A stretch of 64,000 bases of DNA from Marsupella aquatica (GCA_973895155.1 OZ316895.1:18774508-18838507); one strand, 5' to 3'. Counted from the stretch's first letter, positions 1,720 to 64,000 are shown. Made by a program: numbers and translations. The notes: a model not told the origin generated them from the letters alone.

Positions 1720-1731
1720 TGGATCGGGACC

Positions 1732-3918: not shown

Positions 3919-3921
3919 TTG

Positions 3922-4935: not shown

Positions 4936-4989
4936 ACATTGACCCTAAACCCATAACCCAGCCCTCATTTAAATAAATTAATCCTTCAT

Positions 4990-38230: not shown

Positions 38231-38910
38231 TAGTCATAGACATTCTTCAATGACTCTACAATTATGACCAGTGTCCGTAATGATTGTACAATATTTTAAT
38301 CATTGATATATCCAGGATGCTTCAATGACTCTATAAGTAGTTATTTATGAAACAGTATATATCCTGATTTTTAGATTGACTCTACAAGTAGTCATTTATG
38401 AAACAAGTCCATAATGACTGTATGTTGCTATAAACACTGATATATCCTAATTCTTAGATTGACACTGGATTTAGTCATTTATGAGACAAGTTTGTAATGA
38501 CTGTATGTTATTGTAAACATTGATATCTATTGATTTTTTTATTGACCATAGCTTTAGTCATTTAGCACCGTCAGTTAAAATGACCAAAATAGGTTTTTGG
38601 TCATTTCAATCATTGTCCAAAATGACTACAATGGTGCAAAACACTGATTTATCATTGTTTTGATAGTTTATGTCATTTAAGACATTTGTCTAAATTGACC
38701 ATTTTAAGAAAATTGTGTCATTTTGGTCATATCAGTCATTACCGACATTTTACAAAATGACGCAAAATTGATCATTTTGTCATTTCAGTCTATTGGTCAT
38801 TTTGGACAATCATTCTCTGGTCATTCATTTTGTGTCATTGATGATTTAGGTCATTTATGCATTTCAGTCATTGGCCGGTTGGTCATAAAGGGCCATGTTC
38901 TCTTCTAGTG
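38230..38910. mobile_element. Right end of a canonical CACTA element with dense AATGAC/GTCATT subterminal repeats
   Basis: Ends ...TCTTCTAGTG (reverse complement CACTAGAAGA) at 38910 after many GTCATT motifs; abuts MULE-A transposase coding sequence; left end not found in the window. Confidence 0.7.
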
Positions 38911-40716: not shown

Positions 40717-41273
40717 GGTAATGGTAATGGTAATGGTAATGTATTATAAGCTCCGGGGCCATGAAAGTCAAAGGAGCTGCCACAAAAAGTAAAGTACAAT
40801 GCAATCAAAGAAAAGAGCAACCAAAAGAGATTGCTCAGAAGAGGACAACTATGTCCTCAAAGAAACTATGGACCTAGAGAGCCCTATGGACCTAGAGAGC
40901 CCTGAAAGATTTTCCAAACCTATTCTCCTTTCCCTATCCACCGCATAGATATATCTTCCAAGTTGCTGAGGGGGCAGACCAAACAATGCATACAAATCTT
41001 TCACCAAGATTTGAGATGCCATCCTAACCCCCTCATAAAACTTGCAAGCAATGAATACATGATATTCATTCTCTATACTAGAGCTATCACATAGTTGACA
41101 AACCCTCTTTTTCCTGTCAATATCCTTCCATCTCCCTTGTTCTACTTCAAGGTGGTGTGAGCTTAGTCTATACTGAGCAATAAGTTGTCTAAGTTGTACT
41201 GAGATAGTGCTAGATAAGTATTCTTGTTCTCGATATTTCTTCATGGGGTTCACATCTCTCATGTAGTATTGCT
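40717..41273 (-). mobile_element. 5'-truncated LINE copy with an 18-bp GLSRSI duplication
   Basis: (GTAATG)n tail; blunt insertion in MULE-A with CT microhomology. Confidence 0.94.
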
Positions 41274-42243
41274 TGGTGGGTTGTAAGATGGCAACAATGG
41301 GGAAATTTTATTAGACTTGTGAGTACCACCCTTTCCAATTCTATAATAGACTTCTACACTAGCGTCCAATGCTACTATTAAGACTCTTTTTCTTAATTCT
41401 CTCAGTGTTTTTGTCAGCGCCCGGTGCTACTTTAAATTTATAGGTATTGTTGAATAATACCAACATATCTTCCAAAAGTAATATTTGAGATTTGACCAAC
41501 TCATGTTGTCCTGCAGAGCAAAAGTGCACAAGAAGGAGGGGTGATTCCTAATTGCATTGGATCTGAGGCAGTTCATGGTATCATGAAAGCTTGGCAGGGG
41601 GTATAGCCACCGAGACAGGAAATAGGAAAACAGGAATTCTGGTAGCAGATTTTTTTTGCTATTCTCAGGAATATGTTGTTGTTACTAGGAAAAGTTAGTC
41701 ATTGGAACAGGATAATACTTCATTACTTCAAGCCAGATACATCTGAAAAAAATATGCATTGCGCTTCATTTACATTCTAGAGCTTAGAACCAACTAACAC
41801 GACAACAATTGTTGTCTGATGATAAGTGAGTCCGGAATCACCAACATACTTCTGGAAAATAGTGTCCCAAAAACCACAGACACACAACCATTAACCAGTG
41901 AATGCCACAGGAAAAAACATGACATGGTAGGTCCCACCATAAGTGAAAGGCAGAAAACCACAAATGAAAACTCCAGACAATTTGAGAGACCACCAACGAT
42001 GGGCTAGCGCCTGGCGCTAGCTAAAATGGAAACAACCAACACATTTAGAAAATGACATTGGATGAATGCAGAATGTGGCAAACAAAAATTTAAAATATCA
42101 TTTGTAGTGATAGGATTACAATGAAGTAAATGGTAATAAGGAAGACTTCCATCCCAGCGCCAGGCGCTAACACAAAACTATACCATTGTAATACGACAAA
42201 AACTAATATAACCGTTTCGAGTATAGGACAAATATATCCTTCT

Positions 42244-45200
42244 CTATAAACCATGAGCATTCTCCCTTTCCAAGATCAGTCGGACTTCTCCAACTGTGAG
42301 AATTTGTTGGCTGGTCAAAGTAGATTCCTCAACGTCTAGTTTGAAAACGGTCTGGAAAACCCAGTACAAATGTTTGCAAGGCATATATGGATGTCTGCGA
42401 GAATGTCGACGATAGAAATCCTCACAAGAACAAGTCGGGAAAATACAAATCTGCACAGTAACTATTTGGTGTCCTTAGATTCTCATGTGTTTGTACTTTG
42501 AATTGCTTCCCCCATGAGTTCCCAATAGAAACATCCCACTGTCCCTGGACGGACATGGTCTCTTTTCTTGCAGATTCAATCCTCTTCATGTGACCATGGG
42601 TCAAGGTCGATCGAGGAACCGTGTTCTTTCCATTCCGACTCCGGAGATGAACAGTGGATTTCCAAAAGATTGACTCTCTCTGGAAATAAGTTTACATTGA
42701 TTCAAAACTCAAAAAGTGATGGTGGAGGTAGAGGACCGTCTCTTCCTCGGGCTATAGGTATTCCCTGGTCAACAAGATACTTCATCTCAGCTTCCGAAAC
42801 ATTTGTTCCTTTTATAACAGGAAGAACATCAAGAAAGGAGGGTAGGTTCACTACACCACGACGGGGACGGCTCTGATAACATGTGTTGTTTGGGCAGAAC
42901 CATATCATTTCGGCTATGGGTTCCCCCCTGAACATGCGTTGTCCTTTGACAACAATTCCACGACACCGTTTGATGAGGGGAACCCAACTTTCTTCACTCT
43001 ATTTCGACACTCATCTCTCTCGGAACTACCGCCAAATGACGCGTTGCACTGTGGACCAGCCCCAAATCTTGATGTCTGACGCAGATGCCATGAACCCTGC
43101 ATGACTTATGTTTCAAGAACTGGAGATTGGAGCGATGTCTGTTGAAGTATAGTGGGAGCGCTTTGTGAGTATTGTGTTGAACGTGATTGATGTCGACCCT
43201 GCGATGTACTGAAATCATCACGTTTGCATCCCTCGAATCATCACTTCCTGAGAGATTGACAACGGGAATGTCATCAGGTTTTTCTTCCGATACGGAAGCA
43301 AACATTGTGTGGTGCAGATTTTTACGCTTGAGTGATCTGGTATTCGGCAATGTGATAAGGACTTTATCATGCCGGTGGGAGTCTTGTGGCGAGACAATCC
43401 CAATTGCAGGTCCTTTCCTCTTGACAGACTTTGTTAGAACATCTCCGTTGAGAGGAATCATTCTCTCCAAGTCAAACTCAGCTGCATTGGAGAGGAGCAT
43501 GTTCATCGCATCCTTGAACAGCTTTGGGGAACCTGCCTGGTCAGCTGAACGGAAAGCCAGTTTCCATATTGTAGGACCTCTTCCTCTACCCAATCCTTTC
43601 CGATATGCGGTATATGCTGCAACCTGAGATATAGCTCGATTCTGATCCATTTCACATGCCTCGAAGAGCCCCACTTTTTTTTTCATTACCCATGCTTTCA
43701 TTCCTGCGTGAACAGACTCTGATCCGGTACAGTTAGGAATCATAGCGCCTTCTTCAGCACTTTTGTCCTGGAATGACAAAGCATAAACACTAGTAAGAAT
43801 CCGCAAAACATACTAGCGCCAGGCGCTAGGCAAAACATTTCGACAAAACCATCAATATTATTGTGTAATCACATGTTTATGAAAATAAACAGGTCAATAT
43901 TGAGAATCAATTACATTATTTGGATTCTTTGGATGGAATGTTGAGGAATGTCATATGAAAAATGTACTTCTACAAAGGAATCTGACTTGCATATTACTAG
44001 CGCCAGGCGCTATTACTCACCAAGCAAATAAAATTTCCCAACTGCCTCCAACGCACGACCCACCATGATATCCAACTCTGAAGCATTCGGAGCTTCCCAG
44101 GTAAGCAGTTACCCGACTGCCACCATAGGTCAATCTCTCTTGAAAGTCGTTAAGCCTCTACAAATGTTGGTGCGTTCCGTAATTTATCCCATAGCATTTG
44201 ATGTTCCGCCTGCTTCTCTTCCAACACTCCTTCAACAGAATGGCGATGAAAAGCTTGGTAAAAATGAAAAGCGTCCATCCTCTCCCGTTCAGGGTTTGGG
44301 TGCCCTCCAAAAAAAACATTTTGGACTGCTAACCATCCGGCTTGGGCATTGTCTGCCATGAAGCCATGAATGGTTAGATTATCCAACCCATTCTCTTTGG
44401 AAACCTCAATCATTAATCTCTAAGCCTTCTTGAACGACGCCGCGTCCTCTGCTTTTAGCTCGCAAGTAAATATTGTACACAATGCACGGTAATTGTGATT
44501 GTAAACGTGTGCGTTGAAAGTCACCCAATCCTTGGTCATTCGTTTCATGACATCAAAGCTTACCCAGGCACCTTCAAGCATCCCTCCAGGTTGCATTTGC
44601 CGCAAAAGATCCACCCCAGACCCATGGCCTTTGGAAGTCATCTTAAATATGTGAGGTCTGTCTTCTTGAGATCCTTGACCTGGAAGGATGTACCTCTGTA
44701 GAAAAGGCATGTTGATATTCTTTTGATACCGAACAAGAAAATCCAACTCTCCACGGCCTTTCTGGTCCTGCCTAACACCCCTGAAAAGAGATGCAAACTT
44801 ATGTGGAATAGAAACTATAATTAGAGACTGGAAAATCTCTGTCTCTTCGATATCTTCAATCTCACCTAGGTTCTCACACAAAGACTGTACAAAAGATCCT
44901 GTCGCTACATTTTTAATCCCGGCAGGCGTCCAAGTCGGATTGCCTTCCAATTTATTTTTTATGACATCTTCAACTACCTTTTCCGCACTCCGGGAAAATA
45001 CCTTATGACAAGGATGGTTGTGGGTGCCCATATGAATTGCAAGGCAAGACATGTGACTACAAGTATCTGAGTCAAGCAGAACTTGAGGATACATATAAAA
45101 CAGTCTTGCAGAGCATGCCTCTACACAAAAAGGGAGCTGCTAGCAATAATGACAAACAACTCCACCCTGCTCAATGAACGATCCAACACGGCGAGAGCCT

Positions 45201-46006
45201 CCAAGTTTCGGGGTACCAGCCCATGCCTTTGCATTCCTCCTCTTCTTTCGGCGGAAGTAGTCACAAGTTTTATTCCTGCACTCAATAAATCCAGTACAAG
45301 TGACTTTACCAAATTCCCAGTATTTCTTGGGCTGCACGTTTGCAGTGGTAGGAAATATTCTAGTCCAGATGTAGCAATCCTTGGTTCGGTCCATGTCCCG
45401 TAGACGGGATCCTTTGGAAAGAATTCCTGACGATGGAGGCAACTCAAACACTATGTTTCCATTGTACTTCGGAGGCAAACAAGGTACTTGTTCATGCCAG
45501 AAGTTTCCAGCCAAAATGAACCTTGAAAGTTTGCTGGACCCAGTTGACTTGAGCAGCGCGTCCATTGCACTTCTCCGGTATACAATATGGGATTGCGACG
45601 ATGGCATCTCCTCTTTGACCAAGACCACGTCAGGCGCCGAAGGCTCCACAAAGGGGATCCTTGGTGGCTCCTCATCATCACTATCCGAAAGAGTAACTAC
45701 ATCCACCGGATCCCTCTGAGGGGATTGCCGATCTCCTTGATTTGGTTCCCGAACGACAATGGAGTAGCGCAACCAAACATTAAGGTGCCAAAATCTCACC
45801 CCGTCATCAACATCAAAAAGTGCGACAGATTTGAAGTCATTGGCTTCCGTTCCCTCCTGAACAATTGCCTCTATGTCATTCATGCGCAAATCAAACCTTC
45901 CACAAAGATAAACCTCACTTATTTGCCTGTTCCTTTTGGCCACAGACACTGGAATGAAAACAATGTCACCGGTGGACATACGGGTAACTACGATTGACTG
46001 AGACAT
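42244..46006 (-). pseudogene. MULE-B transposase (zinc finger, DDE, SWIM), one intron (about 43769-44020)
   Basis: C-x-G-x2-EC-x-N-x2-C...CHYC...HMGTHNHP; SFDVMK (D); FMADNAQA (D)...AFHFYQ; GSESVH (E); C-terminal SWIM PTCSCEDF...PCKHL. Confidence 0.85.
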
Positions 46007-47005
46007 CACAGAAGCCTCGAAAGCGAATGAGCACAGGAAAATTATGAATCGAAATTCCACCGACAAGGACTGTTATCAATCCTGACTAACATTTCCCTAA
46101 AGCCGTTATAATAAGACAATCCTCTGACACCATAAATGTATTTTGTCGTTATATCAACGTCATTTATGATCAACATCATTAACAATAAACGCCATTTAGG
46201 AAGAACCCTTTTGTTCTAGAAATATCAGATGATGAATAGCGCCAAGCGCTATTAAAAATATTGCAAAAGTAGAGGCCCATGCAGAGTCAATTTATGTGCA
46301 ACGCCTGGCGCTATTAATAACAATCCAAAAGGTTAGGGTCCATGTAACGTCAATTTATGTGTAGCGCCAGGCGCTAATAAAAGAAAATGACATAAAACAA
46401 ATTCCTAAAGGAGACACTGGATGATTAGCGCCAAGCGCTAATACTGATATCATTCATATTATGAACATATACAATGCTAAAAACTTGAAGTAGGAGCCTT
46501 CAAAAGGCTGAAAAGGCTTTGTTTTTTGCTAGCGCTGGGCGCTAGTTTTCTTTTGTATCAGAAATATGAGAAAACCGGATTTTTGGGAAAGTAATGGCGT
46601 ATTAACGCCTCTTATGGCTCTATATTGAATTCCCAACTGACATAAAAATTGAAGATTTTAGGCCTTGGAAATTACTAGCGCCGGGCGCTCTATTTGGTGA
46701 GTAAAAATGAATTCGATATATTCTCAGGTTTTCCTTTCAACGGTCATATTCAATGGTAACTATAGGTTGCGTGACCCTCAATACATTGATCCCCGTTGGT
46801 GTTGTCAAATAAGATAACGACATGTTTCACAGATCCAGGCCAGTGGTTCAGTTTCCTTAACGTATATGTCATGCTCTGTGCTCTAGATTCTTCTTATTTC
46901 CCATGTTAAGTACAGTACGATCGAAGCTGTTTGACGGGATTTTGCCGTTCGCGGTACGGAAAGAGCGCGGTGGTCGTCAGTACTTCCTTTGCCCTTGTGC
47001 GAGCA

Positions 47006-50000
47006 ATGGACCCTGTCTTATCCTCCTCTCAATGCTTTAGTGGAAACGGACACAGAGAGGTCGTTCCCTCACAAACATCTGAGTGCTCATTTTCAGGATC
47101 TGTGTATAGTCATCGAGTGACTCGATCCACTGCTTTGCGAGCTCCTGAAGCACAACCCGTTGTATCGTTCCCAAATAGCAAGAGAGGGAAGATGAATGAT
47201 TTTGATTTGTTTGCTGTGGAGGACTTTGGAGAGACGTCGTTGACTGTTTACGATGTGATCTCCAAACACATTATGTCATTTGGAAAAGATTTCCGAGGAC
47301 ATGACAAGGATCCGCCAAGGATTCCAATGTGCCGACTACTTCATATGGAAGTAGTGCGGATATTACAGAAGGGAAGTCCTTCGATAGAGAAGTCGAAAGA
47401 CTCCTTTCAGAGCACAGGATACAATTCTAAGATCGACATGTTGTTTTACGTCCAACCAACAGATTCCAATGGAGAAGTCCAGATCTGCATGCCAGAGATT
47501 CGTGCTTCCTGGGATGCAATGTGGGTCGCAAAGAACAAAAAGTTTGAGGCGGAATGTGCTGGAAACCCTGACTTCTCCATCTTGCAGGATAAGATGTTTT
47601 CTATGTTTGATGGAAACCATCGACTCTACGCATGGTCCATCGTCACGAAAGAGAATCCGGATGATGTGAAATACCATCCTCGCGTCTAGTGCACAATATT
47701 CAAGGGAGAAAAGGGGTCCTTGATCGAGATTGAGGCGGCGATGCACACTATTAACCAGTAAGTGTCTCTTCCAATATATTTCTATTCTAATCTATGATCA
47801 CAATGTTTCACTAGCACCGGGGGCTACTAACTCCCTCTCTCATTTTCAGGTTTGGGCAGGCAGTGGTCGAACCCTCTTGGATACTTGATGCAGACCGTAT
47901 CAACCGAATTCTCTCAAATGAACTCGATTACTACAAGTCTATCATTGACGCTGCAAACTTCAAGAAGTTTGGGCAGATCATGCAGAAAACACGGAAGGGA
48001 TCGTGGTATACGAAAAAAATGCCTCAAGAAGCGCTTCTGTACATCTTGTGTGAGAATAAGATCAAGTCTTATTCTCGACAGTTTAAGATGGATCCGGAAC
48101 ATACTGCCGCTCAGGGTACACCTTGGTCTCCCGGAGAGATTTCAAAAAGACATGCAACGATGATGAAGGAGGCAACAAAGGATTGGGCAATAAAGGTGTC
48201 AAAAATCACTCCTTTGTTAAGCCCCGCTTTTGAGGATTTCATGCGTACATGTGCTGAGATGTACCCCCTCACAGAGAAGAATAAGAGAGAGAAGAAGCTG
48301 GATGTAGTTGTCTATACAATGGATCAAGCAAGAATTGTTTACCGCTGTCTCTGCCCGCGACCCCAAGCTGAGGAGTACCATTCTGGTTGTCCATTGTACA
48401 TCGGAGCTGAGGAAACAATTCTTCCATCCACAGAGCGTTAATGATGATCTAGTGAAGCAATGGTGCCATACCTGGCAAACTTGGAACACTGTGGAGGGAA
48501 TTGCTATTGGTTTGCTGCAAACCTCCCTACGCCAGGTCAGTGATATAGTCCCCGCCAATCAGTTGCAGGAGTGGGAGTGTGAGTTGATTGAATCGCTTAT
48601 TGAAATAGTCTCAAATGACTTCAAGAAATTTGGAGACGCTGTGAAAGGCAAGTTTTTTAATACAATGTGGCCTTCCAAGTATCCTGACAAGGCTGACTAC
48701 ACCCTCAAGAATCAGAAGAGGGCCAAACGATACCTGTATCGTTTCTTCATGCACATGGAGATTGTGAAGCCAAATTACTTTTGGGCATACCTTGCTGCTT
48801 TCCAAAAGTGGATCGTTGTTCCCGAAGGAGACATACTGGCCGACGTATATTCAATGTATCCCGCTGAAGGGTGTCTTCCACCAAGGAAACTATCAGAATG
48901 GGAGAGAATTCATTGTCCTTGGTATTTGGATACCAATAGATGGGACTCTCCATTCGGAGACACTGAGAAAGACGCATTTCATAAGCTTTCAAAGTCTCAA
49001 GTCCCTCCCAAGTTTGTGTCCGACATGAAGCAGGGAATCAAAGGTGATGTGAGCAAGTCGGCGGCAGAATTGCAAACGGTGTGCGAAACTACGGTTGTTC
49101 ATGTTGACCAAAGTCGCAAACCCAGAGCCAAAGCAAAAACCGAAGCTGCGGCACCGAGTACATCAACGCGGTCTGCCAAAAAATGTAAGTTGTCATTCAG
49201 CTTGTAGCTTCACATTTTGGTTAGCGCCAGGCACTGCTATATGACTATGTCTATTGGTTTGTTTTTTCAATTGGTTTGGACAGCGCCTGGCGCTATTATT
49301 CAGCATTGAATAAATTCTGCTCTTTTTCCTCTAGGTGGGAGAAAGTCTGACGCTGCAACCGACGAAACAAAAGTAGATGCCACTCCGGAGCCTTCCGAAG
49401 CCAATACCGGTGCCCAATCAGACCCAATAACTCCAATTGACAAAGCGAAAGAGATCGTCCCTCTTGATGCAACCAGTACAAAGAAGAAGAAGAAAAGGGC
49501 AATTCAAGCTGGAGAATCTTCCAGAGATGATGCCGCTGGAACTGGTGTTCAGAGAGATGTGGGAACCTTCAAGAGAAAATCTTCTAGGCATTGCATGGTG
49601 GAAACAAGTATCCAAGAATTTATTGATACTGCTTTCAACAAAGCAGCAAAACCAGATTGGGTGACTGATGCAGAGAAATGGGGAAAGGACTTAATCAAGT
49701 CAGGTTCCCGAGAAAAGGGAGTAATCAGAGGAGGAAAAGAAAGATCGTTTGGTGTCAATGCAGGATTCATCTATCTTCCTACTGGACTTAAACCTACGCT
49801 CATGGACCGTCGGGTTCCAAAGTGGAATGTACCAGACCACACAGTTCCCAATTCTTTCTTCAAAGCGATGGACCCTTTCCTTTCTGATGATGGCATGCTT
49901 GCGATCTTGTATTCAGATGCCCATGACCAGGTCTCTCAGGTCATTTCAGCATGCTAGCAGTCAAAAAAAGTTCCATTTTGTCAATTCTCACAATGTCGTC

Positions 50001-51140
50001 ATGTCTATGCCCATGTATAGAGCAAAGACCAATATTTAGGTACAGATCATTGCATCTCTTGTTTATTGTTAGCGCCCGACACTAATTTAGTCTTTGCTGT
50101 AGTTCTCGAAACATTACCCGTCGGTTGATAATTTGAGCCAAACGTGTGCGATGCGTGCAGGTATTTATCCTTAGGCTAGACATATTTTGTCGGACTTCTT
50201 CAAAAGGAAAGGTACCAAAGGATCCAAGGTTTAAGCCTCTATCAATAAGTGAAGATCCTTCGATCTCTAACTTGATTGGGCTCCCAACCTTGAAGACAAA
50301 TCATTGCCCGGAGTTGGATTTTGCAGGGAACGCCTGTCTTTCGGTTGGTTTTATGCAGTCAGTGATAGAGCTTTTTACTCTTCCTGGAGATATTGTCCTT
50401 GACTGGACTGTAGGTTCAGGAAGCACATTCATAGCTGGTGATTTTTCTGGTCGTTCGTGATTGGGTTGGAAAATAGGCATGAGTTTGTTGAGACCGCATC
50501 AAGGGTTTTCTTAGAACTTCTTGATCCCAAGCATGTTCCAATATTGCCTCCTCCCGCGACCAATTTAAGTGGTCGCAAAAAGAAAGATAGGCTCCGATCT
50601 GTTCTCAATTTTGATTCCAACAAAGAGGAAGGTACCTATGGAGACGTCGGAGATGACACAGAGAAAACCCAGGAGGAAGATTCTTTGGAGAAGAGCGAAG
50701 ACTCAAACGAGTAATGTTCTTCCAATAAGCTTCTTTATCCTTTCAAGTGTTGTTGACAATTTTGTGTTCTTGCTCTCTTATCTCCTAAACTCATATTTTT
50801 TTCCGTTTTACTAGATCAGGTCAGAATGGAATCTGAGGAAGCGTTTCCAACTCCGGAGGAGACTAGCTAGGAATGTAATTGTCACTCCTGAGAAGCCGTT
50901 TGTTTTGCCCTCATACGCTGAAAATGCCGCTAGGAGGGTTGAGAAAATTAGAACACTTTGTTGGGAAACAAAGGTCTACGTCTTTAGAGGGGAGCAGACA
51001 GGAAATTCATGAGGAACCCTTATATAGATGATGTTTCCCGAAGCAAGTACATTGATGACGAAGCCGAGTCCACGGACAGATCTGAAAGCTCCGCATCAGA
51101 AACATCTGGTAGTTTATAGGTAGCAATGGGGTTTTCTTCA
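47006..51140 (+). pseudogene. ParB/Srx-like domain + helical region + beta-class N4C/N6A DNA methyltransferase-like fusion gene (about 5 exons, with stops and frameshifts)
   Basis: Exon 1: RIPMCRL...VVR...FDGNHRLYAW. Exon 4: SVGFMQSVIELFTLPGDIVLDWTVGSGSTFIAGDFSGRSVIGLE...FVETA. Exon 3: AGFIYLPTG and FLSDDG. GT-AG introns at 47758-47849, 49185-49334, 50040-50160 and 50711-50814. Confidence 0.78.
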
Positions 51141-53933
51141 AATACGTCATTTAATGTTTCAATATGTAACCATTTTGATAATTGGCTGATTTTAAGCCCT
51201 TTCAACTTTTACTAGCGCCAGGCGCTCCTCAAACATATTGTCACTATTATATTTTTATTTCAAATTCTTGAAGTTTGAGTTGTGAAGACATGTTCTTAGG
51301 TGCAATATTGGCTAGCGCCGGGCGCTTCCCAATTTTCTAAGGGTTCTTGGGTGTGGATTCTTTCCGGGCTGTGGTTGCATAAATGTTTTGTTTTCTGTCT
51401 GATTTTGTGGTATTAGGTGAACTGGTGGGAACAGTCATGGATCTTTGCAGCTAGATGTCTTCTGGAAAGACCCTGATTGGGAGGAGGCTGGAATAGACGA
51501 TGGTTGTCAATTGAGATTACTGTAATAGCGCCAGGCGCTACTAAAAGGTTTTGGTTAATTATAGTTGACTTAAATAGCGTTCCGAGATCAAACATTTCAT
51601 AACCCCCTTAATTAAATATCCTCCGAGAGTGCAATTGGTACAAATTATAGACTCTTCACAGCGCCCGGCGCTAGCAATAATCGTGGAGAGTTCCTACCGC
51701 TACGAGTTTCTTATATTTACTCCTATTTGTTTTTTTGGTGTCTTTTAAAAAAACCTCGCCTTCGGCGCTATTTTTACCAGCGCCTGGTGCTACCAGATTT
51801 TTTTTTCAAAAGTTTGAGACTACAAATTTCCTGTTACTAGTCTTTTTCCCTGTTACCAGTTTCTATTATGAATGCTTGTTTCCTATTTTCTTGCCTTTTG
51901 TAAACACCTCTTGGCAGGGGAAGAAAACTGTCGGCTTATTTGAGGGTTGTAAAATTGACCGCAATCATGCAATCTCTCAAATTGCTGCTTATACTGCCTA
52001 TCGTGATGGTTTACATAGAGGAACAGGTCCTACGGTATTTGAACTAGCTTTCCGTTCAGCTGACCAGGCTGGGTCCCCTCGATTGTTCAAAGAGGCTTCT
52101 AATTTGCTACTAGCTAATGCGGTGGATTTTGATTTGGAGAGGACTTCTCCATTGAACAATGATTTTGTAACCAAATCTGTCAAAAGAAAAGAACCAGCAA
52201 CGGGGAATGTATTGACACAAGACTCCCATCGTCATGACATAATTATGATAACAACACCAAATACACGGGGGTTGAAACGGAGGAATCTGAACTCAACTCA
52301 GTTTTCTCACATTCCTTCAAGGTCTCCTGAAACTCCAATCAATTTTTTTTGGAAGTGACAACTTGGATGACATGCAGGACACACCACCTTTTGGTCGAGG
52401 TGCAGCATCTTCCACATTACCCGAAGTCTCTTTGGACCAAACTCCAGTCCTCCCTAACACGTCACTTTTGGAGATGGATGTTGAACCCGGGTCTTGGCAT
52501 CTTCGTCGAACTTCAAGACTTGGGCCTGGTCCACAGTGTAACGGGACATTGTCCGGGAGATGCGACTGTGATGAGTGTCAAAATTGGATTAAGAAGGTTG
52601 GATATCCTTCCAATGCTGGTGTGATTGGAATTGTTGTTAAGGGACATCGCCTGTTCAGAGGTGAACCTCATGCAAAGTTTGTGTGGTTTGCCCCAATGGT
52701 AGTTGTTGGAAGAGCTGCCCACGTTGAGGCATTGCTAACCTGCCTCCTTATCCAGTGTCCTTGCCAGTACTGAAAGGAACAAATTTGTCAAACTTGGAGT
52801 TACATTTCCAGGAAGAATAGGGTGTTGCAATCTCCACACGACACCAAAGCGTGGCTGCCAACCCTATGCCTTTTGACTTGAGAATCAACATTGATGTTTT
52901 TCCTGAGAAGATCAATATGGCACAAATCAACATCCGTATTTGAACTAGGAATGGGCGCCCAATGAACCCCAGATCAAATTTGACTCAAGAATACCATAGA
53001 AGGATTGAATCTACTGCGAAGAAAACAATGACTCTCATCATAGAATTGGATGTTTCCTCAAGAAACTCTTATGGGAAACGATTACTCATCCAAACACACG
53101 CTCATCGATCTAACACTTATTGGGTGCAGATTTGCATATTTGCCGACATTCTTGAGGAAGACCTTTCATGCCTTGTAAACATTAGTACTGGGTCTACAAA
53201 CAATCTTCAAGCTTGATCCGTTGGATTTGGTCTTACAGAGCCAGCCAATTTTGACTGTCGAGTCGGAGAACTCCAGTTCATTGTAGGAAGGAAGAATCCG
53301 CATGGTTTATAGGAATTTGGATCATTCTACTAGACGTTGAATGGGCATTTTGTTAATGTTGTTTTTAACGGTAACAAACATTTGGTTAGCACTCGGCCCT
53401 AGTAAAATTGGTGTTTCAACAATTGTTGTATTAAACCCTAAACATATTGGAGTTCCTATTGAAATTGGCCTCCTTTTTTGTCTAGAAATATGCCGTGTTT
53501 TGTCGATGATTGTACCAAATCTCTTGTTTTGTTCCCCTCTTTTTCCTGTTATGATCATTACTGTTTCCTGTTTCCTGTCATGGAGGTCGGGCCCACACTG
53601 AGAACAACATAAGGGAAAACAAGACACACAAACCTTGAGGATATGAACTGAATACTGAAGATTTGCACTCCCTTATGAATCACCAAGCATTCCTTCCAAT
53701 GTTTTTGTCTTCCTTCTCTTCTCATGCACCTAGATCAACAACGTACAGTTGTACTCTTGAGAGGGGAGGTAGTCCATCAGTTATCGATCACTGATATCAG
53801 TGGCCCCCCTTTTTTTTGGCAATCTTGGAGACCTCTCCAAGATGGCGACATTTTTTTTGGGCAATCTCGGAGAGCCGACACCCTTCTAGGAGTATCTTGG
53901 AGATACCAAGTTGGTTTGCTCACTATGTCAAAG

Positions 53934-54273
53934 GGGTATGGCATGCGTGACAGTAAACAGGAAACAGGTTTACTGATACCAGCAAAAATTTTCCTGTTAC
54001 CAGCAAAAAGTTACTGTTAGTAGGAAAAATAACCATGTCAAAATATTTTCTAAAAAGTCACATTTTCAAAAAAAAATTAAATTACAACATTTTTGGCTAG
54101 CTTTGGGCGCTAGCATTACCAGCGTCGGGCGCTAGCAAAAAATTAAAAAATTCAAAAAAAACATTTCAAAAAAAAATTCAAAAAAAATTCAAAAAAAATT
54201 ACCACTCATTTTCCTGTTACCAGTTTCTGTTTCCTGTTACTATTTACTGTTTCCTGTCGTTTGTAAATACCCC
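53934..54273. mobile_element. 340-bp non-autonomous MITE of the MULE-B family
   Basis: Ends GGGTATGGC... / ...GTAAATACCCC resemble the MULE-B ends; 9-bp TSD ATGTCAAAG; two central palindrome copies. Confidence 0.9.
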
Positions 54274-54417
54274 ATGTCAAAGAGCCTCTCCGAGTTATCA
54301 AGTCACTTTGCGAACCATCTTTGACTTTCCCATTCTATTTCTCAGACCATCTTGGAGAGGCTCTCCGAGAAACCAGATCACTTTGCTTCTTGAGTCTCAA
54401 GTTTTTGTTCTATTTTT

Positions 54418-54845
54418 CAGACCATTTCGGAGAGCCTCTCCAAGATACCAAGTCTTTTTGTTGACCATCTCGGAGAGCCTCTCCAAGATACCAAGTCTTT
54501 TTGTTGACCATCTGGGAGAGCCTCTCCAAGATACCAAGTCTTTTTGTTGACCATCTCGGAGAGCCTCTCTAAGATACCAAGTCTTTTTGTTGACCATCTC
54601 GGAGAGCCTCTCCAAGATACCAAGTCTTTTTGTTGACCATCTCGGAGAGCCTCTCCAAGATACTAAGTCTTTTTGTTGACCATCTCGGAGAGCCTCTCCA
54701 AGATACCAAGTCTTTTTGTTGACTATCTTGGAGAGCCTTTGTTGACCATCTCGGAGAGCCTCTTTGAGATACCAAGTCACTTTGCAAACCATCTTCGACT
54801 TCCCATTCCATTTCTAAGACCATCTCAGAGAGCCTCTCCTAGATA
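54418..54845. repeat. 43-bp tandem repeat (about 8 copies) with an internal 21-bp palindrome TCTYGGAGAG-S-CTCTCCRAGA
   Basis: TTGACCATCTCGGAGAGCCTCTCCAAGATACCAAGTCTTTTTG at 54461, 54504, 54547, 54590, 54633 and 54676. Confidence 0.93.
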
Positions 54846-54967
54846 CAAATACAAAAAATTTGCAAGTGATGCACATCACATTCACTTTTTATATATATTA
54901 TAATGTGTACACAGAAACACTTCATCATTGCTACCTTCTCTAAAGCTAACTCCTATTGGCCACTACT

Positions 54968-57500
54968 TTATTCTGTTATCTGATATGTGCACAGGTCATA
55001 AATAATCTTCTTTTGCAAGTTTCCTACCTGGCTGCCATCAAAACCCATAGGAGCATCTTGACTTATGCACTCTGTATAGTTAAGGATAAATACCCCATAA
55101 TTTACACTATCTTCTTGTGATGGAAGGCCTGACACTAAAGTTCTAGGCCAGTGGTATGCATCTATTGAGGGCATGCCTCTTTGACTTGCTTCATCCTCGA
55201 TGTACCTTGTTAGAGTATACATGAGATATTCATTTCAAGCCTCCCAAAAGTTTCTTGATTTCTCCCAAAGCGAATCTAGGAACAACACCTCTTTTCCAAT
55301 TAAATCAATCACTGCCAACACCCAATGCTCCCTGTTTGCCTGGTGGATAGGGACCAATATCTTGTCATAATCAAATATGTTTTCTGTTTGGTCCATCGAG
55401 CAACATTGGCAAAACAGTATATGGACGATGAAAGCAACATGTAGAATGTTGTGATGAAAAATGCACACTTTGGATAGCCTCTTGATCTCCCCCTAAACTG
55501 CAACAAGGCCAAGTATGCATTGATGATATCTGAATGTAGCCATTGAGCTGATGTTCTTCCTTCAGACAAGCATCTCATTGACACCCTGGTCAACTTGTAA
55601 TCTACAAAGTTGAACAATACTTCCTCGTCTAGGAGCTCTGTGGATAGACATGTAGATACTATGTTGGATAATTCTTGAGAGCAGACTACATCAGCAAATG
55701 ACCCAGGTATCCGGGTATTCCCACCACGTGCTGCATAGGATTGAACAGCATGGCATGGAATGAACACTCCCTTCTGCGTAAGTTGGAAGGCAAAATATTT
55801 TTGGAGAGAAAGTTTTTGATGCTTCCTCCCATGCTTCACGGACTTTGTCCTTGTCCGATGTGTGTCATTGTTTGGACTCGATGTTCCTGTAGTGAATTGC
55901 CTATTGGTTAAGTAGACAGTTTATGGTAATGGCATAATAATGTGGAACTTCACATTGCTTTTGATCCTCACCATGGCACAATGTAAATTGCAAACTATTT
56001 ACAATAAATGGGTTCTTCAATTCATCATTTACTCACAATCCTGAGCATCCCCACCCTTGCCTTCTGCGGCATCCTCCTCTGAATCAGACTCAAGGACCAA
56101 CTTCTTCCGCCCTTCAGGCTTTGTAGTCTCCTTGGCCTCCTCCTCCTTAGTCTCCTCCTTGCCCTCCGCCTTGGTCTTGTTGCCCTGCTATGTTGAAAGA
56201 AGTTTTGACACCTAAACCAGTCATTCTTTATGGAGCACCAATTTGGGGAGCAGGTGTGTCTAAATCTGGGTGGCAACAGATTGAGGGGCTGCAAAAGCTA
56301 TTTCTTGAGATGGAGCTTGGGATCAAGTCACAAACCCCATATACACTTACACTTGCAGAGGCAGGCTTGTTTCCTTTGGAGGTGGAGGCACTCTTCCACA
56401 CACTCAAATACATCATGCGTGTAAGAGAGTTGGAGGAAAACAGATTTCCTTTTCATGCCTTGCGCTCATCTTCAGCTAAAGGGTGGTATGCAGATGTGTG
56501 CAGGTGGGCCCATGCTTGGGATTTTCCTGAACATGAATGGCCAACACACCCAACCAAGCTAAGAGCAAAACTTGAGCAAAAGGCTTTGCACAAACTTTGG
56601 CATGAACCTAGCCCACGGCAGCAATACTACATGAGAGATGTGAACCCCATGAAGAAATATCGAGAACAAGAATACTTATCTAGCACTATCTCAGTACAAC
56701 TTAGACAACTTATTGCTCAGTATAGACTAAGCTCACACCACCTTGAAGTAGAACAAGGGAGATGGAAGGATATTGACAGGAAAAAGAGGGTTTGTCAACT
56801 ATGTGATAGCTCTAGTATAGAGAATGAATATCATGTATTCATTGCTTGCAAGTTTTATGAGGGGGTTAGGATGGCATCTCAAATCTTGGTGAAAGATTTG
56901 TATGCATTGTTTGGTCTGCCCCCTCAGCAACTTGGAAGATATATCTTTGCGGTGGATAGGGAAAGGAGAATAGGTTTGGAAAATCTTTCAGGGCTCTCTA
57001 GGTCCATAGTTTCTTTGAGGACATAGTTGTCCTCTTCTGAGCAATCTCTTTTGGTTGCTCTTTTCTTTGATTGCATTGTACTTTACTTTTTGTGGCAGCT
57101 CCTTTGACTTTCATGGTCCCGGAGCTTATAATACATTACCATTACCATTACCACTGGAGCTGCTGAGTCACCAAAGTAGTCATGCGCTTCCATCCCAAAT
57201 ACTAGTCGCCCACAATTATTGGCAGTTTTGTAGATAGCACCAAAGTGGACATTCCAAGAAAATATGATACTGCCGAGACTGGTGATGTGCTCTGTGATGC
57301 ATTGCAATGTTGTAGGCGATAAGGTACCCGCCAATTTGTCTCACTGCATCATCTTCCTTTGTAAAATTGGATAGAGCATTGCTCTTTGCTGGGCACAGAT
57401 CACCAGTAATTGACTTCATATGTACCTTTGGGAGGGTCACCTATATACCTTTCATGGCAAATATATCCAAATGCAAATATTGAGCTTGTCACATCACGCA
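54968..57500 (-). pseudogene. Ulp1-like SUMO protease (Peptidase C48) gene, decayed and interrupted by a LINE
   Basis: WLHSDIINAYL...FFITTFY...VARWTK...KILVPIH...HWVLAVID...LDSL...QEDSVNYGVF; the catalytic Cys position reads Tyr; 5' extent uncertain. Confidence 0.85.
56214..57152 (+). mobile_element. 5'-truncated LINE copy inside the Ulp1-like gene
   Basis: ORF2 3' part plus CATTAC tail; blunt insertion (host minus frame AAPV|GVKTS). Confidence 0.94.
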
Positions 57501-58088
57501 AAATATATTTGCACTTGTTAGCAACACTAATTGCTCTACTTTTGACAATGGTCCTACCTATGTTGGAGAGGCTCTCCAAGATGGATCCTACCTATCTTAG
57601 AGAAGTTCTCTGAGATCCATGCTCCCTATCTCAAAGAGGCTCTCCAAGATGGATCTTCCCTATCTCAGAGAGGGTCTCCCATATCAGGAAAGTTTTACTA
57701 TTATCAGCAATGTTTTTACTCACATCAGGAAAAACATTCACAGAATTGTCATCCTCCGTACTGTTGCGAGCAATTAACACCAATAAAAAACATTCAAAAA
57801 TGCCATGAAAAGTGGAGTGCCAAGTCTCTCCAACCACTTAAAAGAGTGTTAAAAACCAATTTTTATAAAAAACGGGGCACTGCCCTAACCTCAAAAGGAT
57901 CATTTTGAGAAAAATATGTAAATAATACTAGCGCCAAGCGCTAGCAATAATCCAACCCTATTTTACAAAACCAAATATTGTCTAATACACTCATTCTCAA
58001 TAAGCTTCTATATATGATAATGCCGTTGGAAAACGACAAAGTACTGACCAATTTAACGTAAACTACACAATAGACACCTCTTTAAATA

Positions 58089-61000
58089 CTACCCTAAACT
58101 TTGTCATTCCAACAAGAGACGTATTTCTCCAACGGTGAGTATAGGCTGACTCGACAACGTTGATTCTTGAAGGTCCAGTTTGAAAACATTCTTATAAATC
58201 CAATACAGATGTTTGCAAGGCAAGAAGGGTTTGCGGTGGGCATGACGATGATAGAAATCTTTGCAAGAACAGCACGGGAAGCAGCAAATCTGAACCCAAT
58301 AGGCAATGACAGAGTGGTGACCAATGTGTGTTTGGATGCAAAATTGTTTGCCCCATCCATTTCTTGTCGCAACATCCCTGGAACAAATTATTTTCATTTC
58401 TTCTTTCTCAGCTGCCTCAATCTTCTTATAGTGCGATTTAGTAAGATGCACTCTCTATAGGCACGTCCTCCCGTTTCGAGATAAATAGCAAATTGTCGAC
58501 TGAAGTAGATTGATCCTTTTCGGGAAAACATTGACATTGATTTGAAGATCTAGTCCACTTGGTGCATTTCTTACACGATCACCTTCACCTCCGATTGATA
58601 TTCCGTTGTCCTTCAGAAACTCTACCTCCACAGTAGAAAGATTTGTAGTCAATGCAATGAGCAAGTGATCACAAGGAGGCGGAACATTCACCACACCTTT
58701 TTGAGGACGACTTCTATAACAAACATTATTTGGACAGAACCAGATCAGTTCTGGATGTGGTTCCCCTCTAAAAATTTGCGCTGCTCGAACTGCGATACCA
58801 ACAACTCCGTTTGACGTCCGGTAGCCTACTTTCTTCAATTGATATCTACATTCGTCACGATCTCCATGTCTGCCAAGGGATCCATTGCACACTGGGCCAG
58901 CACCATGCTTCGAAGTTCTCCTAATATGCCATGCTCCAGAAGGAACATTGGACTCCAACACGGACGGGGTTACTTCTTCAATAACATGTACTGGGGGCGT
59001 GATTGGAGTTGCAGATGACATCGGAGGAGGAGGTGTCCGCTCTTCAAGACTAGCTGAAACATCGCTCTCTGAAATATTGACGACTACACTCTCTTGGGGA
59101 CCTGGTTTAGAAGGAATCGCTGAGAATTTCGTTCTATTGAGATTTCTTCGCTTCAAACCTCGGGTGTTTGGGGTTGTAATGAGGATAGTGTCATGCCTGT
59201 GGGAGTCCTCCACAGAGACATTTCCAGTAGCATGTCCCTTCCTCTTTACTGACCGGGTATGTACATCCCCGTTCAAAGGGGAATTCCTTTCCAAATCGAA
59301 TTCAGCCGTATTGGAAAGGAAAAGGTTTGAAGCTTCTTCAAACAGACGCGGGGAACCCACTAGATTTGCAGAGCGGAAAGCCAGCTCAAACACAGTTGGA
59401 CCATTCCCTCTGTTGAATCCTCTCTTGTAAGCCGTATAGGCTGCAATTTGAGAGATTGCTCTATTCTGGTCGGTTTCACACCCTTCAAAGACTCCAACCT
59501 TCTTCTTTGTTTGCCAGGCAATCATCGATGCGTGAGACGACTCAGATCCACCACAATTTGGAATCATTGCCGCTTCTTCTGCACTCTTGCTCTGCAGAAT
59601 TCATCCGATAAGGTTAGATTTAGGAGTTGAATAGCACCAGGCGCTAGCCAATGAACACATAGAAATAATAGCAGATGTAATCATTTTGAACCTGTATGAG
59701 TAGCGCCAGGCGCTAGCCAATGAACACATAGACACAATAGCATATGTAATCACTTTGAACATGTATGAGTAGCGCCAGGCGCTGACCAACAATTGTTTAG
59801 AATACTTACCAATCGAATAAAGTTTCCCCATTGGCGCCATCGGACAACCCACCATGAAATCCAACCTTGCAACATTCGTAATTTACCAGGATAACAATTT
59901 CTTGCCCTCCACCAAGAATCAATTTCTCTAGAAATATGATATGCCTCGATAAATGACTTTGCATTCCGCAACCTATCCCATAAGGCACGATGTTCACTTT
60001 GCTTTCCCTCAGGAATGCCTTCAATTGAGTGTCTCCGAAATGACTGGAAGAAGTGAAATGCATTTGATCGCTCACGTTTGGGATCAGGAAGTCCCCCAAA
60101 GAACACATTCCTCACAGCATTCCAACCAGCTTGAGCATTGTCCGCCATAAAACCATGAATGTGGACATCGTGAAGACTGTTCTCATCAGCCACCTCCAAC
60201 ATTAAACGCCAAGCCCTCTCAAGGGATTTTGTATCTTCTGCTCGCAACTTGCAAGTGAATATCGTGCAAAGTGCACGATAGTTATGGTCATAAACATGTA
60301 CACTAAACGTAAGCCAATCCTTTGTCATTCGGTGCATCACATCAAAACTTACCCATGGACCCTCAAGAGGCCCTCCGGGACTCATCTGTCGAAGAAGATC
60401 CAGACCACAGCCTTCACCCTTAGTGGACATCTTGAAAATGTGTGCACTCTCATCTCGAGACCCTTGTCCCGGCAACAAGAACCTTTGCAAAAATGGGAAT
60501 GCAATGTTCTTCTACATGCTTACCAGAAATTCCAATTCACCTCTTCCTTTCTGGTCTTGACGGATACTCCTCAGAAGGTTCACAAATTTCTGAGGTGTTG
60601 AGATGACTTGAAGAGATTCAAAAATCTTGGTCTCCTCTATTGGGATCATGTCTTGAACTGATGACTCACACATTGGCTTAAAAAGAGACCCGGTGATGGT
60701 GTTCTTCATACCCGCCGTAGTTGCACGTGGATTCAAAGTCAAACCTTGTTCCATGTGCATCTTTGAAACTTTCTCTGCCTCTCTTGAAAAAACTTGCTTG
60801 CTCGGATGGTTATGATGTCCAATGTGAATGGCAAGCCGCGACATATGCTTAGCAGACTCGGCATCAACTTTGGAAGATGCGTACATGTAGAACATCATTG
60901 CTAGACAGGACTCAACACAAAATGGGCGCTCCCAACAATAATGACAGACAATCCCACCCTCAGGAATGATTTGCTCGACTACGTGCGGTCCAGAAATCTT

Positions 61001-61774
61001 AGGAACTCTTGCCCAAAACTTTGCATTCCTCCTTTTATGTTCGGCCCAGAACTGACATGAATTGTTACGACATTCCAGGGAACCCGTGCAAAAGACTTTC
61101 CCAAAATCCCACACCTTTTTTGGGAGAACATTTGTGGAAGTCGTGACAATCCAAGTCCAATAGTAGCAGTCCTTGCCGCGATCAATGTCCCGGAGGCGTT
61201 CACCTTTTGAGCAAACTCCAACAACTGGAGACAGTTCAAAAACAATATTCCCATTGTACGTGCCAGGCAAGCTTGATACTTGCTCAAATCGGTAATCGTT
61301 CCTTCGCATGAATCTTGAGATCTCACTCTAGCCTTTTGATTGTAGAATTGCATCAAGAGCACTCCTCCGGTACACAACTGACTCGGTCGTCCGCCCATGG
61401 ACAGTCTCCACTTTCACGTTGTTATGAGGAAGACAGAGCTTCGCCAAATCTTCATCATCGCTACTATTTGAAAGGTCAATCAAATCGACTTTCAACTTCC
61501 CCTTTGAGGAGGATGGTACCTCAAATTTTCCCAAACTAACGATGTCATACTTCACCCCACCGCACAACCTCCAATACCAAACTCCTTCAATGAAATAAAC
61601 ATCAACCACCACTTCCTCTCCCGAGATAACTATTCGCTGTATGCTTTCCCTAGGAATTCCAAACCTGGTGGCAAGATATTCCTCAGAAATTTCATCATTT
61701 TTCTTAGGATCGACGAGAAGGATTGTCACAAGGTCGCCAGGCGGACAGCAAGAAATTACAATTCATGAATCCAT
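58089..61774 (-). pseudogene. MULE-C transposase (zinc finger, DDE, SWIM), one intron (about 59592-59809)
   Basis: Same motif order as MULE-B: HIGHHNHP, SFDVMH, FMADNAQA, AFHFFQ, GSESSH, PCCSCKDF...PCKHL. Confidence 0.85.
59632..59785. repeat. 69-bp tandem repeat in the MULE-C intron, each unit carrying the palindrome
   Basis: TAGC(A/G)CCAGGCGCT at 59632, 59701 and 59770 with near-identical spacers. Confidence 0.9.
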
Positions 61775-62639
61775 TGGAAATGGCGTACAGAAATGTGAGG
61801 CTACATAAATTCATTTGTGCTGAATAAAACCGTTATGAATACGACAAAGTGACCTATTGGCAATGAATGCTTGTCGTTTTCTAACGGAATTACACATGTC
61901 AGCACCTACCAAGAAAAGCTTATTGATCAAAATTTGAACATAAATTTCAAGACACACAAATAATAGTGCCTGGCGCTAAGTAAGTGAGATGAAAACTTCA
62001 GGCTCCATATGCACATAGTGATGTATGGTTTGACAAGCATCATCTCAGATGACACGATTGTCCAAGTTCCCTTTGATAGCACCAGGCGCTAGCAAATATG
62101 TATCATGCATATCTGGTCCGTAACGGTAACTCCCAACGCTAGCGCCAGGCGCTATCAAAGGTGTACTCGATAATCAAATGGTAACTTTAACGGTTGTCAG
62201 GTTAATGTTTATTAGCGCCCGACGCTAGTAAACTATTCAAAAAGAAATGGTCTGTTCTCAAAGGAATATTATCTTCCGTGTAAATATATGAGAGGATAAA
62301 GAGACCATAACCGCATCTCCCTATGATAGCGCCAGGCGCTAACAAAACTTTGAGTCAATTTTTGAAGGTTCCAGACTGTAATATTTTACTAGCGCCTGGT
62401 GTCCAACGTCCCCCGACTCACATGCCGCCAGAGGTCCAGTCGTCGTACATTTAGGGTACTTTGCTTCCTTTGGAATTGTTCCTGCTGAGGCAGATTCTTC
62501 TCATTTGCGTTGGTGTCGTTGAGGGATGCGTGTAAGGAGAATCCGCACGATTAAGCGTACAAACTCCCAAACTAACTCTCGTACAAAATGAAATTGAACG
62601 GGAAAAATCTCTGCATCGCAATTGGGAGAGTATATCAAA

Positions 62640-64000
62640 ATGGGATCTGGGTCGCCAAACCATTCCCAGTCCTTAGAGTCATCGTATTCCAGTTGTGTTT
62701 CAAGTCGAAGAGTAACTCAATCCATAGCGCAATATCCTCTCAGTCAAGTTGAGCTTCCTTGTCCAAAACCGAGGCAATTGAAAATGGAACATGTTGGTGA
62801 GTTTGCCATTTAGAATGTCGATGACATTGAGAAATCGGTGGTCAATGTCATTGAAAAGCACGTGATGTCATTTGGAGTTGATGCAAATGGGTTACCAAAG
62901 GAGCCTCCAAGAATTCCTTTATGTCATCTTGTTCACATGGAGGTTGTGCGCACTCTTCAGAGGAACAGTCAATCGATTGAGAAGCTGAAGGACTCGTTTC
63001 GGACATCTGGATACAATTCGTCCATTGGCATGCGCTTTTTTGTTCAGCCATCCAACGTTGAAGGTAATCCGCAAATTTGTACAAATGAAATTTTGGGCAC
63101 TTGGGATCCTCTTTAGATCATGGAGAACCAATTGTTCGAAGCGGAATGTGAATCAGACCCCGCTTTCCACGTCCTCAAGGACAAAATGTTCTATGTTTTT
63201 TATGGAAATTATCGGCTGTTTTCGTGGACTCAAGTCAAAAATGAGAGTCCAGAGAATCCTAAGTATCATCCTCGCGTGCAATGCACAATTTTCAAAGGAG
63301 ACAAGGCATCAATCATCAAGATTGAGGCAACGATGCATATTGTTAACCAGTGAGTTTTCTTTCACCACCGACTACTCTTCCCAATTTTGATTGTTTCCCT
63401 TTGACAATTTCTCCCTTTTTTCAGGTTGTATTGTTAGGTTAGCGCCAGGCGCTATTTCTAATGTCCTAATTTTCATAGGACGGGACAGGCAGTGGTAGAG
63501 TCTTCTTGGATTTTGGATGCGGACAGAATCAGGAGGATTTTGGCTCATGATCTTGAGTACTACAAACCCATAATTGATGAGGCAAATTATGCAAAATTTG
63601 AGAAGATAAGGAAAGGAACCCGAAAGGGTTTGTGGTTTACCAAGAAGATGCCGATGGAGGTGTTGGTATACATCTTGTGTGAAAACAAGATCAAATCATA
63701 CTCGCAGCAATTTCAGGTGATGACGAACCAGGCGAGCAGTTCCGGCGCTCCATGGTTGGTCGAAGAGACGAATCTTTGTCACAGTCAGATGATGAAGGAA
63801 GCCACTAAGGAGTGGACTGTGAAAACTCCGAAGCTCACTTCCTTGCTGAGCCCAGAGTTTGAAGATTTCATGGACACTTGCGCTGAGATGTATTGTCTTA
63901 CAGATCGACTCAAACGTGTAAAGGTCCCTGAAGCTGTATTCTGCACTACGGATAGAGCTCGCTTGTTCACTGCCAATTCGGCATTAGATCCAAAATTGCA
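62640..64000 (+). pseudogene. MULE-C homologue of the ParB-methyltransferase gene (5' part; runs off the window)
   Basis: PPRIPLCHLVHMEVVRTL...KMFYVFYGNYRLFSW...KYHPRVQC; the same first intron position and divergent arrangement as in MULE-B. Confidence 0.8.

Follow-up and report, generated by a model that had tools for sequence, protein, structure and literature searches.

We analysed a 64,000-nucleotide stretch of the Marsupella aquatica genome (GCA_973895155.1 OZ316895.1:18774508-18838507; hereafter the window) and describe a family of Mutator-like elements (MULEs), represented by elements B and C, in which a transposase gene lies head-to-head with an intron-containing gene for a ParB-fold protein and the palindrome TAGCGCCNGGCGCTA is scattered through the non-coding parts. 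At a probability of about one half, we believe that this accessory protein, which in B also carries a beta-class methyltransferase domain, is a self-recognising regulator comparable to VANC of the VANDAL transposons, predicted to bind the element's own non-coding palindromes as a dimer, rather than an active methylase. Under this model, the accessory protein and not the transposase would read the dispersed palindromes and the transposase would use the separate terminal ACAGGAAA repeats, which would make this a two-motif element. Loading or release of the protein would be switched by a nucleotide (CTP or ATP) bound in the ParB pocket, the methylase domain may have been retained as a DNA-contacting module, and occupancy of many sites could keep the element transcribed or transposition-competent, also in trans for miniature inverted-repeat transposable elements (MITEs).

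First, the palindromes are numerous and, in B and C, confined to non-coding DNA. Within the window TAGCGCCNGGCGCTA is found 9 times exactly, 24 times with at most one mismatch, 31 times with at most two and 33 times with at most three, and 100 shuffles of the window give an expectation of 0 copies at one mismatch or fewer. An earlier note on this DNA had counted more than 30 copies, which is true once two or three mismatches are allowed and not at stricter settings. All 31 copies with up to two mismatches lie at or after position 41415 and are divided between B (19), C (10), an intron of a third family member, copy A (41415), and a MITE (54120). In agreement with the note, exons, which cover 70% of B and 80% of C, hold no copy out of the 29 in these two elements (P = 1.5e-10 and 1e-7; the exon limits behind these values were off by a few bases, the 3' end of B intron 3 being about 19 bases short, and were refined later). 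In both the promoter region and an intron the palindrome has been expanded in tandem (63-bp and 69-bp arrays), and its sequence is identical between B and C despite saturated synonymous sites. Non-coding placement together with tandem expansion in promoter and intron is the pattern reported for VANC motifs (PMC5735166) and supports a VANC-like function.

The placement also bears on the idea that a host factor binds the palindromes, or that they form hairpins in RNA or single-stranded DNA, the accessory gene being unrelated cargo. Seven of the eight GT-AG introns that we defined hold a copy, and a 6-bp stem with a 3-base loop could form. However, most palindromes lie in the promoter gap or in downstream regions, both halves are fixed in sequence beyond mere complementarity, and Rfam yields no match in 41000-64000. 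Moreover, related clades carry unrelated palindromes (see below), which favours a reader encoded by the element over a single host factor, and we therefore regard this explanation as improbable.

Second, B, C and copy A are decayed copies of a multi-copy Mutator-like transposon (Table 1). The divergent layout of transposase and ParB-domain gene that the note had proposed is present in both B and C, the start at 41599 given in the note coincides with the left end of B, and the accessory gene of B lies inside termini flanked by target-site duplications. CTTGGCAGG stands on both sides of B as a 9-bp duplication, an 8-bp reading being equally compatible, and excision of B together with one duplication copy opens the reading frame of copy A again, from which we conclude that B is nested inside copy A. 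Copy A is thus split by B and, in addition, by a fragment of a long interspersed nuclear element (LINE; 40722-41273), and it bears a weak palindrome at 53387 besides the intronic one. The MITE holds two degenerate palindromes (54098 and 54120). The insertion of B into copy A and the motif-bearing MITE with related ends go beyond the account in the earlier note. Both B and C contain stop codons and frameshifts. Their proteins are 55-67% identical at saturated or nearly saturated synonymous sites, and dN of 0.26-0.35 against pS of 0.71-0.83 in both genes indicates past purifying selection on transposase and accessory gene alike. Contigs from four public sequencing runs (393 to 8328 per run) give near-complete coverage of the element at 80-100% identity and carry indels at several of the B frameshift positions, which indicates that the family is multi-copy and that the lesions of B are its own.

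Table 1. Features of the Mutator-like family in the window; positions count from the first nucleotide of the window.
Feature	Position	Strand	Details
Copy A, third family member	38889..53590	+	ends approximate; only transposase in view
Left target-site duplication of B	41590..41598	+	right copy 51910-51918
Element B, two-gene Mutator-like transposon	41599..51909		10.3 kb; termini short and imperfect (GGGTATAG.../...GTAAACACCT); subterminal repeats of the ACAGGAAA type
B palindromes, total span	42005..51792		19 copies
B palindromes	42005, 42155		downstream of transposase
B transposase pseudogene	42244..46006	-	2 exons; intron 43768-44020
B palindromes	43814, 43998		transposase intron
B palindromes	46237, 46299, 46362, 46426, 46530, 46676		divergent promoter region, partly 63-bp tandem array
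B accessory pseudogene	47192..51120	+	5 exons, about 1150 codons; introns 47758-47849, 49185-49334, 50040-50160, 50711-50819
ParB/Srx-fold domain	47192..47757	+	conserved R56, DGNHR 47609-47623, downstream H..N
B palindromes	47812, 49222, 49281, 50070		accessory-gene introns
Beta-class amino-methyltransferase domain	49766..50471	+	motif IV YLPT (49772); S-adenosylmethionine-binding motif I DWTVGSGST (50401)
B palindromes	51213, 51313, 51526, 51659, 51778		downstream of accessory gene
MITE, non-autonomous, 340 bp	53934..54273		ends related to B, GGGTATGG...ATACCCC; duplication ATGTCAAAG (9 bp)
Element C	57680..64000		left end approximate, right part beyond window; transposase and accessory gene divergent
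C palindromes	57929		outermost left of 10, span 57929..63454
C transposase	about 58104-61773	-	intron 59592-59809
C palindromes	59632, 59701, 59770		intron, 69-bp tandem array
C palindromes	61964, 62077, 62140, 62213, 62327		divergent promoter region
C accessory gene	from about 62423/62784	+	intron 63350-63478
C palindrome	63440		accessory-gene intron

We treat the minus-strand gene and the element ends as those of a divergent MULE of the type that lacks terminal inverted repeats (non-TIR). The B transposase has a Cys/His-rich N-terminal part ending in HMGTHNHP, followed by SFDVM (44546), GFMADN (44348), DAFH (44261) and GSESVH (43708) and by a SWIM-type finger, CSC...CKH, at 42361-42432. By eye, D (SFDVM), D (GFMADN), DxxH (DAFH), E (GSESxH) and CxC..CxH can be found in B and its homologues, and we take the roles of these residues to be those of the D, D, DxxH, E transposase series. 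A Pfam scan of 20 window pieces and 8 longer homologues gave no transposase match; the Atlas neighbours of the homologous segment of the C transposase are MULE/ZSWIM RNaseH-like clusters (best 0.94, 166 shared features), and one piece from a related locus matches ZSWIM1-3_RNaseH-like at E=0.032. The 9-bp duplications of B and the MITE (8 bp also fits) fall inside the range of 8-11 bp known for MULEs (PMC6446971). Long terminal inverted repeats are absent, and the short, imperfect ends of B are compatible with non-TIR MULEs such as VANDAL. The ACAGGAAA repeats follow the element ends and form a second motif, separate from the palindrome.

This division into two motifs is relevant to a further explanation, namely that the palindromes are binding sites of the transposase, which would activate its own element and assemble on it, and that the ParB-methylase gene has another role. 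The transposase contains Cys/His-rich regions of a DNA-binding type, copy A and the MITE bear the palindrome with no accessory gene in view, and other elements of the window have palindromic arrays with no visible ParB gene. On the other hand, parS sites are palindromes suited to a ParB dimer, and the palindromic form of TAGCGCCNGGCGCTA likewise fits a ParB-type dimer. The AtMu1 transposase alone binds its cognate motifs, hypomethylates them and activates its family (10.64898/2026.08.24.746577), but this binding is at the termini, whereas the palindromes described here are mostly in introns and in the promoter gap and the ends are occupied by ACAGGAAA. In red algae, inverted-repeat arrays adjoin ParB-domain genes under an unrelated transposase superfamily (10.1101/2025.02.11.637652), which argues against the transposase as the reader and supports the accessory protein in this role. 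We consider recognition by the transposase possible, if doubtful.

Third, the N-terminal part of the accessory protein has a predicted ParB/Srx fold, as had been suggested from its DGNHR box. The AlphaFold model of B exon 1 has a pLDDT of 92, and in a structural comparison (VIA) the top 10 of 17 rows are ParB/Srx-fold proteins, the best being KorB (Z 5.5, rmsd 2.5, 75 aligned). Foldseek ranks Noc, KorB, PadC and ParB at the top, none of them at E<=0.001 (E>0.1). Our assignment is based on the concordance of these top rows and on the GNHR box in homologues. We also take Atu1540, SerK, SbnI and Osa to be members of the ParB/Srx superfamily, and the DGNHR box presumably stands nearer to its Srx/SerK-type members than to those with GERR. 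An exhaustive search returned 183 homologues of exon 1, and the pocket motif [DE]GNHR is present in 104 of 150 among the matches listed; in element C it has decayed to YGNYR. A word-based homologue search with the ParB exon gave no match, and no ParB match came from scans of Pfam, PHROGs and NCBIfam or from a sequence-profile search of the PDB. No close relative was found among 103 pattern matches in viral contigs or 37 in prokaryotic genomes. The B gene may start further upstream (47008). Along its length the B accessory protein is collinear with the Riccia protein P0153 (1207 aa) across the ParB, middle and methylase parts. Among 20 cluster representatives (17 exon-1 homologues and 3 transposases) 8 are from Riccia sorocarpa and 3 from Adiantum, and the Riccia and Adiantum relatives encode the same type of protein; these relatives by themselves would point to a non-seed land plant as the likely host.

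Fourth, the methylase domain of the accessory protein is probably dead, judging from its catalytic motif. In B, FIYLPTG (49766-49786) comes first, and GDIVLDWTVGSGST (50386-50427) and, past a frameshift, VIGLE come after it, so that motif IV precedes motif I in the permuted beta-class order. That the domain belongs to the beta class, as proposed before, follows from its match to Pfam PF01555 (E=1.4e-5, narrowly short of the curated cut-off) and from the fold of the Riccia homologue; a match to PHROG 3008 (E=1.1e-5) was also obtained. The Riccia model is of low confidence (pLDDT 43.5); Foldseek gives it 49 matches at E<=0.001, down to 1.9e-8, and VIA finds beta-class enzymes (Z 8.9, rmsd 4.6, 177 aligned). 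When the methylase part of P0153 was used as query, all 26 matches were Riccia proteins, from many contigs. Active enzymes carry the catalytic motif [DNSH]PP[YFW] (PMC4738411), and the aromatic residue of DPPY or SPPY stacks the target base (PMC10406627). In Riccia, motif IV reads D[LM][PS][ST], with no aromatic residue, in 22/22 proteins that cover it (8/30 do not), and the aromatic fourth residue is missing from 12 of the 13 readable contig clusters, the one exception being DIPW. The note had already marked YLPT as atypical; with the aromatic residue missing in 34 of 35 readable cases from Riccia and the contig families, the erosion is family-wide and no peculiarity of a dead copy. In a check restricted to contigs at least 80% alike, the Tyr codon of YLPT is free of variants reaching 15% in each of four runs, and two nearby variants are synonymous. 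This invariance next to synonymous change suggests that the methylase domain is kept under selection in the absence of the catalytic Asp.

These data are difficult to reconcile with the epigenetic writer favoured in the earlier note, in which an active 4mC/6mA methylase would mark the element after loading on its palindromes. The fold is of the beta class, like that of CcrM, M.PvuII and rotifer N4CMT, motif I retains its GxG in B, Riccia and the related contig L010, most relatives have Asp or Asn at the first position of motif IV, DIPW occurs in one contig family, and the same writer idea has been published for algae (PMC12477816). Against this stand the missing aromatic residue, Tyr in place of Asp in the window family, and, except in L010 and weakly in L076, the lack of a motif X-I match in the long intron-rich contigs. 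Nor is CCNGG, put forward in the note as a possible methylase target, common to the families: in a large related clade the core of the palindromes is a decayed CGGCGCCG. An active writer appears to us improbable.

Fifth, several relatives of the accessory gene in metagenome contigs carry palindromes of their own. A scan yielded 157 relatives, and the 80 retained fall into 44 clusters. Profile matches to pieces of the window itself were disregarded as circular, these pieces being part of the alignment. The N-terminal half of a methylase follows on the same strand in 18/23 locus clusters with at least 3 kb downstream, and 7/16 clusters that extend 4 kb or more upstream contain a related transposase there, on the opposite strand, as does one shorter cluster. 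From a scan of 30 loci for repeated palindromes, 13 were carried forward, with palindromes of their own: GGTGCC-N6-GGCACC in L006 (17 copies), TTCGGCGCCGAA in L033, ACTTT-N8-AAAGT in eight loci (4-10 copies), and further ATGGT-N8-ACCAT, CATATG-N8-CATATG and ATGG-N9-CCAT. Deamination of CGGCGCCG or CGCCGGCG would account for many of the variable centres. Profile-matched coding stretches contain none of 87 palindromes; the test is weaker than that in the window in that these stretches span only 6-34% per locus. In a ParB tree of 35 rows, motif classes track the clades, with weak support for a placement of the window sequence beside Riccia, and different protein clades carry different palindromes, a point that the note had proposed to check. 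The window palindrome TAGCGCCNGGCGCTA itself was found in none of the 37 related loci tested. Predictions of motifs from sister taxa held in three cases (L070 with 2 copies, 3 when relaxed; L028 with 1, 3 when relaxed; L058 with 29) and failed in five (L010 and L030 with 0 copies; L018, L027 and L057 with 1), while L001, L008 and L009 were under 2 kb.

Three observations were made beside this survey. A 25-bp tandem array of the palindrome TAATGGCCATTA, with at least 28 units, lies inside the ParB-methylase gene region of L013 (5418-6142) and L058 and resembles the arrays of Bostrychia. L023 has a second palindrome, TTTGCGA-N11-TCGCAAA, in 7 copies downstream of the accessory gene (13714-14340), possibly the end of this element or of a different one. 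In L030, a contig that is otherwise eukaryote-like, a bacterial-type extracellular solute-binding domain (Pfam SBP_bac_6, E=3.7e-8) is encoded at 4060-4440, upstream of the ParB gene.

Several of our results weigh against a VANC-like role of the accessory protein. The agreement between palindrome and ParB clade demonstrates that the motif turns over with the family, not which protein reads it, since transposase and accessory gene are co-inherited. Palindromic arrays are not unique to the ParB-methylase family: 16 shuffles never gave p below 1.6e-4, and values of 3e-6 and 9e-6 came from two stretches of the window that hold other transposons and served as controls, so that transposons with no visible ParB gene hold such arrays too. 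Many related loci have no convincing palindrome (e.g. L010, L018, L019, L027, L030 and L065), and an upstream transposase was undetected in 9 of the 16 clusters with at least 4 kb upstream. The structural scores for the ParB domain are modest, and a DNA-reading helix-turn-helix was not identified in the middle region of the protein, which was not folded. Furthermore, 16 of 17 internal palindrome mismatches are C>T or G>A, a bias that would be expected from deamination of host 5-methylcytosine and suggests that the B and C copies were likely methylated by the host. CpG retention (0.69 in B, 0.73 in C) was dropped as a mark of escape from silencing, several elements elsewhere in the window (12-24 kb and 32-36 kb) keeping as much.

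If the accessory protein is the reader of the palindromes, it might do more than bind. One could envisage a nucleotide-gated eukaryotic ParB/parS clamp in non-seed land plants that loads at clade-specific palindromes and spreads, with the dead methylase as a DNA contact and with orthogonal pairs of protein and palindrome, and that holds off silencing by host 5mC; we regard this full scheme as unlikely.

The system was presented in the earlier note as a candidate new one, and this claim does not stand, since similar ParB and methyltransferase accessory genes, and ParB-linked inverted-repeat arrays, were proposed in 2025 (PMC12477816; 10.1101/2025.02.11.637652). Sola1-1_Ec32 of Ectocarpus carries a gene for a 1104-aa ParB-like and N4C/N6A methyltransferase protein opposite the Sola1 transposase, for which self-binding and self-modification were proposed, and similar proteins in green and red algae are cited (PMC12477816). 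The likeness extends to the size of about 1100 aa, the two domains and the opposite-strand gene; compared by description, the family studied here differs in its land-plant Mutator-like carrier, its defined dispersed palindrome and its eroded catalytic motif. In the Plavaka elements of Bostrychia, PAG2/PAG3 have a ParB-like domain together with arrays of inverted repeats proposed as its sites, a PF01555 methylase is carried, and homologues are reported on Mutator elements of Chondrus (10.1101/2025.02.11.637652). There, however, the two domains reside in separate genes, ParB as a fusion with a 2OG oxygenase and the methylase as a fusion with SET, and the arrays are tandem and gene-adjacent rather than spread across introns and flanks. 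With VANDAL our elements share the Mutator-like type, degenerate ends, an accessory gene and short family-specific motifs that lie in introns and in intergenic and terminal non-coding regions and are expanded in tandem, whereas the VANC motifs named there are non-palindromic and 8-9 bases long, VANC is not described as a ParB or methylase in the accessible text, and anti-silencing, which was shown there, is inferred here (PMC5735166). The beta-class prokaryotic-type fold in a eukaryote recalls rotifer N4CMT and Marchantia MpDN4MT1 (PMC10406627; 10.1101/2021.02.12.428880), which in contrast are host genes with shown activity (SPPY in N4CMT; MpDN4MT1 compared by description) and not eroded transposon cargo. 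Similar to the ParB-parS, Noc and KorB clamps, the accessory protein has the N-terminal fold and conserved pocket arginines and is accompanied by 15-16-bp palindromic sites in many copies; the helix-turn-helix and the ParA partner of those systems were not identified here. In the openly accessible main texts, we found no account of this land-plant Mutator-like family or its palindromes. The family thus joins an already proposed kind of element, from which its catalytic erosion and precise site set it apart.

The window contains other repeats. At 54275-54850 and 57548-57680, 43-bp and 34-bp tandem arrays, in which every unit includes the odd palindrome GGAGAG-N-CTCTCC (8 exact copies and 10 with one mismatch), flank an element with a weak Ulp1 protease-like frame (55312-55920, minus strand; Pfam C48, E=0.046), another transposon with a palindromic array of its own. 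At 5455-6600 and 36800-38560 lie two AT-rich repeat blocks, related to each other, in which TGAC-N10-GTCA recurs (11 exact copies across the window); they are probably subterminal arrays of another DNA transposon. A nearly intact young LINE at 29131-32355 has a 1074-codon endonuclease and reverse-transcriptase frame, an upstream short open reading frame and a CATTAC tail, and has a CpG observed/expected ratio of only 0.08 despite its youth. It has many truncated copies, 96-99.8% identical, with fragments at 83-934, 4024-4936, 8338-10845, 25243-25527, 40722-41273 and 56214-57153. Two copies of a GC-rich element of no assigned family, with coiled-coil frames, at 12000-21000 and 27500-36000 are 84-86% identical, the second being interrupted by the LINE, and the frames at 22800-25900 are presumably the remnant of an EnSpm/CACTA-type transposase.

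Finally, one paper states that among transposons VANDAL alone has been shown to bind its own sequence and to modify it, and the two algal papers of 2025 propose, with no defined site in the accessible text, that ParB-type accessory genes do likewise. The locus described here supplies a precise candidate site, and the clade-specific palindromes can serve as specificity controls, which makes the proposal for ParB accessory proteins testable by simple binding assays. The methylase half in land plants, which by its motif would no longer be a writer, changes the mechanism to be expected. If loading and spreading are true, this would be a ParB clamp on eukaryotic chromatin and may provide orthogonal tools for targeted anti-silencing.

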